A stretch of 64,000 bases of DNA from an uncultured bacterium. GTDB taxonomy: Bacteria; Patescibacteriota; Minisyncoccia; Phycocordibacterales; GWA1-40-21. Shown piece after piece: positions 45,654 to 49,810 of this stretch. Under the pieces are notes generated by a model. It was not told the origin of the DNA, did not search any database, and saw only the letters and a program-made list of their open reading frames with translations. Every line of letters begins with the position of its first letter. Positions within the stretch are counted from its first letter, which is position 1. Both the position numbers and the translations under genes were made by a program. Location: contig CAILDB010000012.1 in NCBI GenBank assembly GCA_903832855.1, forward strand, positions 4,368 through 68,367, read 5' to 3'.

Positions 45654-48035
45654 ATGCAAGATGAAGTTGAAAAAATAAAAAAATATGTTCGTGCGACAAA
45701 TTATCTTACAGTTGCTCAAATATATTTGCAGGACAATTATTTACTAAAAAATAAACTTACTTTTAACGATATCAAGTCTAGACTCCTTGGCCATTGGGGA
45801 ACTTGTCCAGGGATTAATTTTGTCTATGCAAACCTAAATAATTTAATTACAAAAACTTGTGCAAAAATGGCTTTTGTCCTAGGTCCCGGTCACGGATTTC
45901 CTGCACTCCAAGCCAATCTTTTTTTGGAAGGAACTTTGGGAAAATATTATCCAGAAGCTACAAAAGATTTTGCTGGTCTATCATATGTTGCCAAGGAGTT
46001 TAGCTGGCCATACGGATTTCCAAGTCATTCTAGTCCTGTCACCCCCGGAGTAATTCTCGAGGGTGGAGAACTCGGGTATTCTCTTTCTGTCTCTTATGGT
46101 GCGGTGCTAGATAACCCTGAACTTATCGTGGCATGTCTAGTCGGAGATGGTGAAGCGGAAACAGGACCACTTGCGACTGCGTGGCATTTGAATAAATTTA
46201 TTGATCCTGCGACAAATGGTGCTGTACTTCCGATATTGCATTTAAATGGTTACAAAATTTCCGGTCCAACTATCTTTGGCAGAATGAATAATTCTGATTT
46301 GAAATCCCTTTTCAAAGGCTACGGATATGAGCCGATAATTGTAGAAGGTAAAAACGACAAAGTTTATGAAAAAATGATAAAAGCTTTGGATGAATCGTAT
46401 GCGAAGATAAAAGCAATTCAAAAAGAAGCCAGAGAAAATAAAACTGAAAATAAAATCGCAAATGATGAAAAATATTTTGCCAGATTTCCTATGATAATTC
46501 TCAAAACACCAAAAGGATGGACTGGGATTAAAACCCTTAAAGGCGACAAAATAGAAGGGAATTGTCTGTCACACCAAGTCGTTGGAAAAGAAGCAAAGAC
46601 CGACAAAGTAGAATTAAAAGCGATAGAAAAATGGATGCACTCGTATAAATTTGAAGAACTTTTCAGCGAAGAAAAAGGTTTTGTGGAGGAACTTTCTAAA
46701 AATATTCCAAGAGAGGAACTGCGAATGGGGGACAATCCACATGCATATGGAATTAAAAAAGGAGACAATTCTAGAGATTTAATTTTGCCGGAAATTAACG
46801 AATTTTACGAAGATTTTTTGAACAGAGGTAAAGAAAATGTTGGTTCAATGAAGAAAATCGGCACATATCTCACTGAGGTTTTTAAATTAAATAAAGAAAA
46901 GAAAAATTTTCGTTTGATGTCACCAGATGAGACATATTCCAATCGTTTGCAGGATGTTTTTACACAAACCTCTCGTGCCTTCACTGGTCCCGTGATGGAA
47001 TGGGACAATAATATTTCCGCAGATGGCCGAGTAATGGAAATGCTTTCTGAACATTCAATGCAAGGGCTTGCGCAGGGTTACACTCTTACTGGAAGATTTG
47101 CGATTTTTGCCTCGTATGAGGCATTTATTCCAATTGTTTCAAGTATGGCGGATCAATATTCTAAATTTTTGAAAATTGCCAGAAAAACAGAGTGGCGAGG
47201 AGATGTTCCTTCGTTTAATTATATTTTGACTTCGTCTGGCTGGCGTCAGGAACACAACGGTTTTTCTCATCAGAACCCAGGATTTATAGATGGACTTTTG
47301 CAAAAGCACAACGACTTTATCAGCGTATTTTTCCCAGCAGATGCAAACGAGGCTATGGCTGTGATGAAAAGATGTTTGTCTTCAAAAAATGAAATAAATA
47401 TTATTGTCGCGGAAAAAACAATTGAGCCGATTTGGCTTAAAAAAGAAGAAGTTGAAAAAGAACTTGCGGACGGACTTTCTGTTTGGGATTTTGCAAGTGA
47501 TGAAAATCCTGACATCGTAATTGCTGGTTGCGGACAATATCTCGTCAAAGAGGCACTCGCCACAATTGATTTGATTAAAAAAGAAGTACCGGAAATAAAA
47601 GTGCGATTTGTAAATATTTTGGAACTTTCACCAAATACTATCGGTAGTGCACTTTCTCAAATGCCGGAAGATAAATTTGAAAAATATTTTACAAAAGATA
47701 AGCCAGTGATATTTAATTTCCACGGATATCCAGAAACCCTCAAGCAATCTATTTTTGATTATGAAAATGCGCTCGGCAGATTTTCTGTCCACGGATATTT
47801 GGAAAATGGATCTACTACAACGGCGTTTGATTTGCACATTAGAAATAAGACAGACAGATATAATCTTTTGATTGAAACGGTTTTAAAAATGGCAAAAAAT
47901 GGCGTGATTACCGAAGACAAAGCTTCAAAAATAGTAGAAATTTATCAACAAAAAATAATTGACCACAAAGAATACATAATTAAATTCGGCGCCGATCCAG
48001 ATGAAATAGAAAAGTGGCAGTGGAGTAAAAACTAA
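45654..48035 (+). CDS. xfp: xylulose-5-phosphate/fructose-6-phosphate phosphoketolase
   Basis: GHWGTCPG signature; thiamine-diphosphate enzyme motifs (GDGEAETGPLATAWH, EHSMQGLAQGY). Confidence 0.85.
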   Translation: MQDEVEKIKKYVRATNYLTVAQIYLQDNYLLKNKLTFNDIKSRLLGHWGTCPGINFVYANLNNLITKTCAKMAFVLGPGHGFPALQANLFLEGTLGKYYPEATKDFAGLSYVAKEFSWPYGFPSHSSPVTPGVILEGGELGYSLSVSYGAVLDNPELIVACLVGDGEAETGPLATAWHLNKFIDPATNGAVLPILHLNGYKISGPTIFGRMNNSDLKSLFKGYGYEPIIVEGKNDKVYEKMIKALDESYAKIKAIQKEARENKTENKIANDEKYFARFPMIILKTPKGWTGIKTLKGDKIEGNCLSHQVVGKEAKTDKVELKAIEKWMHSYKFEELFSEEKGFVEELSKNIPREELRMGDNPHAYGIKKGDNSRDLILPEINEFYEDFLNRGKENVGSMKKIGTYLTEVFKLNKEKKNFRLMSPDETYSNRLQDVFTQTSRAFTGPVMEWDNNISADGRVMEMLSEHSMQGLAQGYTLTGRFAIFASYEAFIPIVSSMADQYSKFLKIARKTEWRGDVPSFNYILTSSGWRQEHNGFSHQNPGFIDGLLQKHNDFISVFFPADANEAMAVMKRCLSSKNEINIIVAEKTIEPIWLKKEEVEKELADGLSVWDFASDENPDIVIAGCGQYLVKEALATIDLIKKEVPEIKVRFVNILELSPNTIGSALSQMPEDKFEKYFTKDKPVIFNFHGYPETLKQSIFDYENALGRFSVHGYLENGSTTTAFDLHIRNKTDRYNLLIETVLKMAKNGVITEDKASKIVEIYQQKIIDHKEYIIKFGADPDEIEKWQWSKN

Positions 48036-48036
48036 T

Positions 48037-49209
48037 ATGAAAAAATATTTAATAATAAATCCAGGAAGTGCATCCAGAAAATACGCGCTATATGAAGGCG
48101 AAAAAGAACTCGCTTATATGCATATTGAGAGTGAAGAGGGGGGGAATGAAATTAGCACTGTTACTGCACAAGGTAAAAAAGAAAAGAAAAATATTAGTGC
48201 TGAAGATTTTGATAAGTCGTTTGAATATACATTAAATGAACTCATAAAAGCTGGGCTTATTGCGAGCAAAGAGGATATTGCGGTCTGCGGAATTAGAGTC
48301 GTCGCTCCTGGAAATTTTTTCTTGCAAGATAAAATAATAAATTCTGAATATAAAAAATTGTTGAAAAAAGCTTTTGAAAAAGCGCCTCTTCATATTGCGC
48401 CAATTTTGGAAGAAATTAAAAAAATACGATATGCAATTGGAAGAATTCCTTTAGTTGGTATTTCGGACAGTGCGTTTCATTCCAGTATGATGGAAAAGTC
48501 CAAGAGATACGCAATACCATCTGAGGATGCAGAAAAATTTGAAATTTTCAGATATGGCTATCACGGAATTTCTTTGAGGTCTATTGTTTCAAAAATGGAA
48601 AAATCAGGGCCAATTCCAGAAAATGTAATTATCTGCCACATTGGTGGGGGTGTCAGCGTAACCGCGCTCAAAAATGGTAAAAGCATAGATACTACTATGG
48701 GACTTACTCCACTTGAAGGAGTCGTAATGGCGACAAGGGTGGGTGATATTGATTCTGGAGCGGTTGTTTATTTGTCCAAAGTAAAAAAGTTGAAAGGCAA
48801 AAATCTTTTGCAATACTTAAATAAAAAATGCGGACTTCTGGGAATAAGCGGGAAAAGTGATGATGTTCGCGATTTGATTAAAGCCGAAAACGAGGGCGAC
48901 AATCTTTCAAAACTTGCTCTTGATATGTATGCCTACAAAATTCAAAAATACATTGGTGCCTATGCAGTAGCTCTCGGTGGTCTTGATACAATTGTTTTTT
49001 CTGGAACAGTGGGGGAGAGATCTTTTTTGATGAGAGAAAGAATTTGCAAGGGGCTTGGATTTCTCGGTGTTGAAATAAATTCAATATTAAATAACACATC
49101 AGATAGTATAGATGTCGTCTTGAGCTCTCCAGAATCAAAAGTAAAAGTAGAAGTGGTCAAGACTGATGAAATGGCACAGATGGCAAAAGATACTGCAAAG
49201 TTTCTATAA
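48037..49209 (+). CDS. ackA: acetate kinase
   Basis: LIINPGSASRKYALYE N-terminus; HIGGGVSVTALKNGKSIDTTMG; VGERS motif. Confidence 0.85.
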   Translation: MKKYLIINPGSASRKYALYEGEKELAYMHIESEEGGNEISTVTAQGKKEKKNISAEDFDKSFEYTLNELIKAGLIASKEDIAVCGIRVVAPGNFFLQDKIINSEYKKLLKKAFEKAPLHIAPILEEIKKIRYAIGRIPLVGISDSAFHSSMMEKSKRYAIPSEDAEKFEIFRYGYHGISLRSIVSKMEKSGPIPENVIICHIGGGVSVTALKNGKSIDTTMGLTPLEGVVMATRVGDIDSGAVVYLSKVKKLKGKNLLQYLNKKCGLLGISGKSDDVRDLIKAENEGDNLSKLALDMYAYKIQKYIGAYAVALGGLDTIVFSGTVGERSFLMRERICKGLGFLGVEINSILNNTSDSIDVVLSSPESKVKVEVVKTDEMAQMAKDTAKFL

Positions 49210-49210
49210 T

Positions 49211-49251
49211 CCCTTCTGTCATCCCGGCGGAGGCCGGGATCCATCTTAATC
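49211..49251 (+). repeat. family-1 palindromic repeat copy after the ackA stop
   Basis: cccttctgtcatcccggcggaggccgggatccatcttaatc. Confidence 0.8.
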
Positions 49252-49296: not shown

Positions 49297-49617
49297 GGCT
49301 CCGGAGGTAGGGATCGAACCTACGACCAATCGCTTACATTTGTTCCAAAATTTCTTTTGGCATGGACTATATCATCATCCTTCACAAAATTGTGAATTGG
49401 ATGTGGGGCGTTTCCCGGGATTTAAAAAATCCAAGTACTCTCTTTCGAGATAGTCTCTGAACCTTCAAGTCATGAGTGACTTGCTTGGCTGCTGATTGCC
49501 CGTTCGCCTCAAGCGAATTTGGGTTTCCAGCAATTAACCTCATTTTTCATCCTAAATTACTTTAGGAAGCTGCAAGTACGCTTACAGGCGATCGCTCTAC
49601 CGCTGAGCTACTCCGGA
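49297..49617 (-). tRNA. tRNA-Asn(GUU) interrupted by a 247-nt group I intron in the anticodon loop (between positions 35 and 36). The mature form has a class I variable loop, discriminator G and an encoded CC
   Basis: 5' exon 49584-49617 (TCCGGAG TA GCTC AGCGGTA GAGC G ATCGC CTGT). 3' exon 49297-49336 (TAA GCGAT TGGTC GTAGG TTCGATC CCTAC CTCCGGA G CC). Acceptor, D, anticodon and T stems all pair. The anticodon loop CUGUUAA is the same as E. coli tRNA-Asn. Confidence 0.65.
49337..49583 (-). ncRNA. group I self-splicing intron within tRNA-Asn
   Basis: Contains the canonical group I core elements R (GTTCAGAGACTA) and S (TGATATAGTCC), which form P7. The 5' exon ends in U, the intron ends in G (..caaatg), and a GCAG at intron position 11 could form P1 with exon CUGU. 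Confidence 0.65.
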
Positions 49618-49810
49618 GCCTAAAAATCATTTTTACCTATTAAGTTGTTTAAAGAACGGTGCCCTTTTTGAGCAAACTCATACTATCAGAAAATTCTAAA
49701 AAAATAAAGGGCGTGGTGTCTGCATAAGTAAAATTTGAACCCTCATTGCATTTATTGTAAAAAAGAGTATTTTATGTGTGGAAGTAGGTCTCAAACATGA
49801 GGAGAAAAAC

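Follow-up and report, generated by a model that had tools for sequence, protein, structure and literature searches.

An interrupted tRNA-Asn gene

We analysed a 64-kb stretch of DNA, here called the window, whose minus strand carries between 49617 and 49297 a tRNA-Asn(GUU) gene made up of two exons and a 247-nt group I intron; all positions below are those of the window, and all features of the gene lie on this strand. The 5′ exon (tRNA positions 1-35; 49617-49584, 34 nt) was delimited from the sequence and from ARAGORN calls on the spliced and unspliced forms. It consists, in order, of the acceptor strand UCCGGAG, UA, the D arm GCUC-AGCGGUA-GAGC, G, the anticodon stem strand AUCGC and the loop nucleotides CUGU, and it ends in CCUGU, U35 at 49584 being the base that precedes the 5′ splice site. 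The intron (49583-49337, 247 nt), identified by Rfam RF00028, its homologues and covariation, is without a credible ORF, begins with AAGCGUAC and ends in CAAAUG, with G49337 as its last base. The 3′ exon (U36 to G73; 49336-49299, 38 nt), placed by sequence, by ARAGORN and by the 72-mer identity described below, starts with UAAGCG and reads UAA, GCGAU, UGGUC, the T arm GUAGG-UUCGAUC-CCUAC, the acceptor strand CUCCGGA and the discriminator. G73 is an identity element for AsnRS in E. coli tRNA-Asn, and it is present at 49299, after the acceptor 3′ strand. C74 and C75 are encoded at 49298-49297 and are followed by U where A76 would be expected.

The original prediction had described two canonical tRNA halves 247 nt apart, and every element, length and motif that it listed is exact at 49297-49617. 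Its elements thus stood; it left unmentioned that the gene is on the minus strand, that the intron carries P7.1 and P7.2 hairpins, and that introns of this kind are catalogued and common. As a separate observation, the flanking GGC and GCC (49297-49299 and 49618-49620) could add 3 bp to the acceptor stem of the precursor.

A single junction combines a 7-nt anticodon loop with a U before the 5′ splice site and a G at the intron end, namely CCUGU/...AUG/UAAGCG (slashes in such strings mark splice sites), for which the predicted spliced junction sequence is GAUCGCCUGUUAAGCGAU. This bears out both proposed intron ends, the 5′ site after U (CCUGU/) and the intron-final G (caaaug/). When the sequence was spliced in silico, ARAGORN called tRNA-Asn(gtt), with the 7-nt loop CUGUUAA and the anticodon GUU that had been predicted; with introns allowed, it called tRNA-Asn, i(35,247), from the genomic sequence. 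Run at default settings it made no tRNA call across the 64-kb window, which otherwise holds no tRNA, rRNA or further Rfam family at the gathering threshold. Splicing after U33, which would produce a tRNA-Thr(UGU), is impossible in the window, where the intron-final base would then be A.

Four metagenomic contigs (L210, L219, L220 and L223) each carry a tRNA gene with no intron that matches the spliced 72-mer at 72/72 positions. The flanks of these genes are unrelated to those of the window. The copies therefore confirm the mature tRNA sequence, and we rejected a reading of them as the empty-site allele of the same species because no flanks are shared. A search for an uninterrupted allele in viral contigs found none.

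The chief importance of the finding is that the gene escapes standard tRNA finders. tRNAscan-SE 2.0 is, by its own statement, not designed for group I intron detection, and work on the finishing of CPR genomes (PMC8172020) reports that tRNAs with introns of this sort are difficult to detect. A genome annotated by the usual route would seem to be without tRNA-Asn, which affects tRNA-complement and completeness checks of small CPR genomes.

A group I ribozyme fold with P7.1 and P7.2 hairpins

The intervening sequence had been proposed to be a group I intron, to be checked against the Rfam covariance model. RF00028 (Intron_gpI) matches 49593-49344 of the minus strand end to end (model positions 1-253 of 253), scoring 80.3 bits (gathering score 50; E 8.7e-19), and is the sole Rfam match in the window. 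The two core elements named at the outset are likewise in place, R as GUUCAGAGACUA at 49462-49451 and S as GAUAUAGUCC at 49373-49364. The precursor folds with z = -4.9 relative to shuffled sequences, and the minimum-energy fold alone recovers P1, P2, P4-P5, P6a, P7.1, P7.2, P8, P9 and the anticodon stem. Taken with the ARAGORN calls, the model match and the fold are well outside what chance would produce.

We built an alignment (A1) of 24 short homologues, extended into the 5′ exon by 9 bases and into the 3′ exon by 8. From these 24 sequences RNAalifold predicted the anticodon stem, P1-P6, P6a, a pair of hairpins located after P7 and before the P3 3′ strand, P8, P9.0 and P9, with compensatory changes in 44 of 60 predicted pairs. 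Its pair between the terminal G and the C of AGUCC is a nesting artefact, which we discarded, and the P7 pseudoknot was substituted by hand. In a 69-pair model of the 24 sequences, 94.0% of cells are paired, as against 34-42% when the partners are slid by 1-3 columns. Changes on both sides occur in 48 of the 69 pairs, and 0 of 500 shuffles reach any of the observed measures. P7 is invariant and therefore uninformative for covariation.

P1 (49570-49587) is formed by exon CUGU and intron AAG (49587-49581), a CGUA loop (49580-49577) and the guide CUUGCAG (49576-49570). Its C-G, U-A, G-C and U.G pairs are each found in 24/24 homologues, and the last of these, U49584.G49573, is the wobble pair at the splice site (U.G in 24/24). 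The fifth pair covaries (AU 9, GC 9, GU 2, CG 1). The suggestion that the internal GCAG (49573-49570) could form P1 is thus well founded, CUGU with GCAG being invariant in 24/24 homologues and the adjoining pair covarying. P2 (49551-49566) is a hairpin, CCUAAA-GUAA-UUUAGG, all 6 pairs of which change on both sides.

P3 joins UGAGGUU (49536-49542) to CGCCCCA (49410-49404), a 3′ strand placed from the alignment, and 4 of its 7 pairs covary in the family. The segment 49490-49532 holds P4 (UGCUGG with UCAGCA; 4/6 pairs covary), P5 (CCC with GGG; 2/3) and a P5a hairpin, UUCGC-UUGAG-GCGAA, which is based on the sequence and the single-sequence fold and stands outside the covariation count. P6 (GCC with GGU) and the P6a hairpin CAAGUCA-CUCA-UGACUUG, in which 7/7 pairs covary, occupy 49461-49489.

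The 5′ strand of P7 (49451-49457), G-(A bulge)-GACUA, forms a pseudoknot with 49369-49364 and is invariant in 23-24 of 24 sequences; its 3′ strand, UAGUCC (49364-49369), was assigned from the alignment and lies within the S element. By analogy with Azoarcus, G49455-C49365 is the putative guanosine-binding pair. Two hairpins follow, P7.1 (49439-49450; UCUC-GAAA-GAGA, 4/4 pairs covary) and P7.2 (49414-49435; CUU-GGAUUU-UUU-AAAUCC-(C)-GGG, CUUGGAUUU...AAAUCCCGGG, 6/6 counted pairs covary). P8 (49376-49403; CAUCC...GGAUG) covaries in 4/5 pairs. The segment 49338-49363 comprises P9.0 (AU at 49363-49362 with AU at 49339-49338; 2/2 pairs covary) and the P9 hairpin CCAAAA-GAAA-UUUUGG (49360-49345; 4/4 counted pairs). 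The terminal guanosine (omega-G) at 49337 directly precedes the 3′ splice site and is G in 24/24 homologues.

No conserved P10 helix is visible in the 24-sequence alignment. The window has an apparent duplication, U/AAGCG at the 5′ junction and G/UAAGCG at the 3′ junction; we do not claim a P10 from it because the complementarity is one base out of register and is unconserved in the alignment.

The window copy retains 66 of the 69 pairs, inside the range of the family. One loss, in P9, is only apparent and reflects the alignment register; the two real ones are both in P3, where the window reads UGAGGUU with CGCCCCA and the family consensus, CGAGGUG with CGCCUCG, is fully paired. One of them is an A.C mismatch and the other a U.C at the end of the helix. 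Two such non-canonical positions could mark a real but decaying intron in what is now a pseudogene, with tRNA-Asn supplied by a copy outside the window; 64 kb of the genome is all that is visible, and since the intron is without an ORF, no homing activity maintains it. However, the 66 intact pairs equal or better the count in most homologues, all invariant core nucleotides are kept, and the exons are identical to uninterrupted genes elsewhere. L091, which is 85% identical overall, has both P3 deviations as well, an indication that this state of P3 is tolerated. We regard decay as very improbable.

Homologues, locus and endonuclease ORFs

We scanned genomes, one per species, for the P7 3′ strand followed after a gap of 15-45 nt by G/UAA and then by a variable loop and T arm resembling those of tRNA-Asn. 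Among 121 sequences (the 120 matches listed, with the window counted in), at least 113 show CUGU/intron/UAA and at least 107 yield tRNA-Asn(gtt) when spliced in silico at one common junction, where the 5′ splice site follows a U and the last intron base is G. Hosts among the matches listed are mostly Patescibacteria/CPR (Saccharibacteria, Paceibacterota and others), further ones being cyanobacteria (Microcoleus, Tychonema and Phormidium), Nitrospira, Omnitrophota, Elusimicrobia, Margulisbacteria and proteobacterial MAGs. Intron lengths among them run from 188 to about 830 nt and have two modes, and the closest relative listed, L091, comes from a Candidatus Paceibacterota MAG and is 85% identical across the entire precursor. 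A metagenome scan with the predicted spliced junction as query returned at least 120 contigs that share the junction region.

About half of the intron-bearing tRNA-Asn homologues are labelled tRNA-Thr(tgt) by ARAGORN in intron mode, with an intron at position 33. The call is ambiguous in these homologues because their introns begin with GU and end with GUG; two junctions then both give a U before the intron and a G at its end. A Thr identity is contradicted by their Asn-type tRNA bodies, and the mislabelling is a systematic annotation trap.

The gene neighbourhood is also shared. In L092 (MAG ELA554) the tRNA-Asn gene adjoins ackA (52% amino acid identity), the phosphoketolase gene xfp (67%) and typA (73%), as in the window; typA is a common neighbour in L039, and mltG in L078 and L056. 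Judged by this gene order, the intron occupies a conserved tRNA-Asn locus. A neighbourhood common to relatives makes the window ordinary chromosome, and its host probably belongs to the Patescibacteria (CPR). A cyanobacterial origin, hinted at by the octamer GCGATCGC in the tRNA, was rejected: the octamer occurs once in the 64 kb, and G+C is 36.8%.

Within the window, the phosphoketolase (793 aa) and acetate kinase (390 aa) genes follow one another at 45654-49209 with stop and start adjacent, a fermentative pair that is kept beside tRNA-Asn in L092. A G+C-rich inverted repeat, CCCGGC-GGAG-GCCGGG (49224-49239), separates the ackA stop codon (49209, plus strand) from the tRNA gene, which converges on ackA and has its 3′ end at 49297. 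The repeat may be a shared terminator; a simple terminator scan left it unflagged. A promoter scan upstream of the tRNA gene gave nothing better than shuffled sequence.

These comparisons bear on whether the locus might be an assembly artefact or chance, with two tRNA halves around unrelated sequence. Beyond the probable origin of the window in a metagenome assembly, nothing favours such a reading. The same architecture is found in more than 100 independent genomes and recurs at a syntenic locus, and the neighbouring acetate kinase gene is indexed in 73 blocks of a public assembly collection, from which 17 carrying contigs were examined. We give this reading next to no credence, and on the comparative record it appears effectively refuted.

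The window intron had been thought too short for a homing endonuclease, and we agree that it contains no credible endonuclease ORF: its sole ATG ORF (53 codons) crosses the core of the ribozyme and does not resemble the HNH-like ORFs of longer relatives. In 21 of the 29 listed relatives whose introns reach 500 nt or more, the P1 loop contains an HNH-like ORF of about 100 aa (L092:120-700, L009, L014, L017, L030, L037, L045, L047, L052, L064, L073, L076, L077, L090, L111, L113 and L118, among others). These ORFs have the motif CxxC...HH...CANCHxE(I/V)H, with the stop codon at or just beyond the GCAG guide. The label HNH-like refers to the CxxC...CxxCH motif only, as Pfam HNH matches to the relatives' intron ORFs were sub-threshold (18-20 bits vs 21.4) or absent. 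At the syntenic locus of L092 the intron is 551 nt long and ORF-bearing, whereas the window P1 loop is 4 nt long and ORF-less, a contrast that fits gain and loss of the endonuclease ORF.

The same pattern occurs in the viral collection IMG/VR, in 48 stretches (L122-L168); 37 of these parse as tRNA-Asn(gtt) once a group I intron of 192-844 nt at position 4 is removed in silico. Some of these contigs, which reach 543 kb, may be misclassified CPR DNA. A 2014 review knew phage group I introns in protein-coding genes only.

Predicted splicing and relation to known introns

Together these data support a model, to which we assign a probability of about 90%, in which the locus is a chromosomal tRNA-Asn(GUU) gene whose group I intron would be spliced by the standard guanosine-initiated route and represents the ORF-less form of a family with HNH-like ORFs in the P1 loop. 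The gene would be transcribed from the minus strand, and exon CUGU and intron AAG would pair with the guide CUUGCAG to form P1, placing the U.G wobble at the splice site. A free guanosine held in P7 would attack after U49584. The terminal G49337 would then occupy the guanosine site, and the freed 3′-OH of the exon would attack after G49337, joining the exons and creating the anticodon loop CUGUUAA. Throughout, the anticodon stem of the tRNA, rather than a P10 helix, probably keeps the exons in register; exons of the Anabaena pre-tRNA are aligned by the anticodon stem, according to work cited in PMC3984707. RNase P, 3′ trimming and CCA completion would finish the tRNA.

That the window intron would splice by itself is expected from homology. 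Some group I introns with P7.1/P7.2-type peripheries need a protein or RNA chaperone, and a real intron that requires such a host factor in the cell could explain the weakened P3, the AU-rich helices P2, P7.2 and P9 and the lack of a conserved P10. On the other side, the core is compact, P2, P7.1 and P9 have GNRA-type loops, the fold prediction is a strong one (z -4.9), no cofactor candidate came to light, and classical bacterial tRNA introns self-splice in vitro. A need for a cofactor is in our judgement improbable, and we favour guanosine-initiated splicing by the intron RNA itself. Our search of the literature found no splicing assay for an intron of the Asn type.

The intron is a new instance of a known and common kind. 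Williams 2020 (bioRxiv 10.1101/2020.01.27.920355) surveyed about 80,000 bacterial genomes and enlarged the set of tRNA/intron settings from the four classical ones to 21; among the seeds that it aligned is 'Pam37.Asn.4Ug' (UGU/a...g/), in a tRNA-Asn setting. The window reads CCUGU/aagcg...caaaug/UAAGCG, with the intron after the fourth anticodon-loop nucleotide, between positions 35 and 36. It shares with Asn.4Ug the tRNA, the insertion point, the U before and the G ending the intron, and the P1 of CUGU with GCAG. Between P7 and the P3 3′ strand the Pam37 seed forms a single composite hairpin, as do L097 and L057, whereas the window has two separate hairpins, and the window sequence is absent from the published seeds. 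With the kind known, common, widespread and catalogued in 2020, no new question is opened by its occurrence here. The peer-reviewed sources consulted name classical tRNA intron types only, Leu and fMet in PMC5733544 and fMet and Ile2 in PMC8450103. PMC5733544 also deals with tRNA 'group I introns' of 22-49 nt in cyanobacteria, which we set aside as not relevant because they are far shorter than a group I core.

The classical IC3 set comprises the introns of cyanobacterial and plastid tRNA-Leu(UAA), tRNA-fMet, Agrobacterium tRNA-Arg(CCU) and Azoarcus tRNA-Ile(CAU). Like these, the window intron is a small ORF-less ribozyme of the anticodon loop with a P3-P8/P4-P6 core, a P7 of GAGACUA with UAGUCC and GNRA loops on P2 and P9, and its exons are probably aligned via the anticodon stem. 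Unlike them, it is in another tRNA and at another position, within the anticodon (35/36), and before P7 it has UCAGAGACUA where the classical IC3 introns have GUAGAGACUA. The Azoarcus (Aol6) and cyanobacterial Leu (Sel1) seeds, classed IC3, have no residues in the P7.1/P7.2 columns, in contrast to the two hairpins of the window.

These columns are filled in the Lys.2Ug, Asn.4Ug, Phe.2Ug, Leu.1Ug and tmRNA seeds. Rough pairwise alignment scores were 111 for Azoarcus Aol6.Ile2.5Ug, 105 for Gba28.Ile2.2Ug (the lowest), 146 for the Leu seed and 177-194 for the Asn, Leu.1Ug and Lys seeds, all of which have P7.1/P7.2 hairpins; by this rough measure the window intron is nearest to Lys.2Ug, Leu.1Ug and Asn.4Ug. 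Because the P7.1/P7.2 hairpins are present and the Azoarcus seed scores near the bottom, we did not file the intron under IC3. P7.1 and P7.2 are a mark of class IA. The window intron has both helices and, judged on these helices alone, is assigned to no subgroup; P7.1 and P7.2 are among the class-defining features of group I introns (PMC3984707).

The Lys.2Ug (Dba165), Leu.1Ug (Mga42) and tmRNA T-loop introns have P7.1/P7.2 helices and, by rough alignment, the most similar cores (AAUUGCUGGAAA, CAAUCAGCAGCCAAG, GGUUCAGAGACUA), but they differ from the window in host RNA, position and internal guide. Tyr.4Ug (Mba143) and Asp.4Ug (Wba81) resemble it in loop position and in a CUGU target with GCAG, with G34-U35 anticodons throughout, yet their P7.1/P7.2 columns are empty, their P3/P4 sequence is different, and they are not nearest by rough score. 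We can tentatively entertain, while leaning against it, a reading in which the tRNA-Asn introns with P7.1/P7.2 form a separate, still-active lineage apart from IC3. At a locus inherited vertically in Patescibacteria, such a lineage would alternate between ORF-less forms and forms with an HNH-like ORF. It would also move from one phylum to another, reach tRNA-Asn genes carried by phages and perhaps pass from one G34-U35 tRNA (Asn, Asp, Tyr, His) to the next, all of which offer a CUGU target. If this were true, the only tRNA-Asn gene of many CPR genomes would be interrupted and the ribozyme activity essential. The window copy is in any case a compact natural ribozyme of 247 nt sited inside the anticodon itself.
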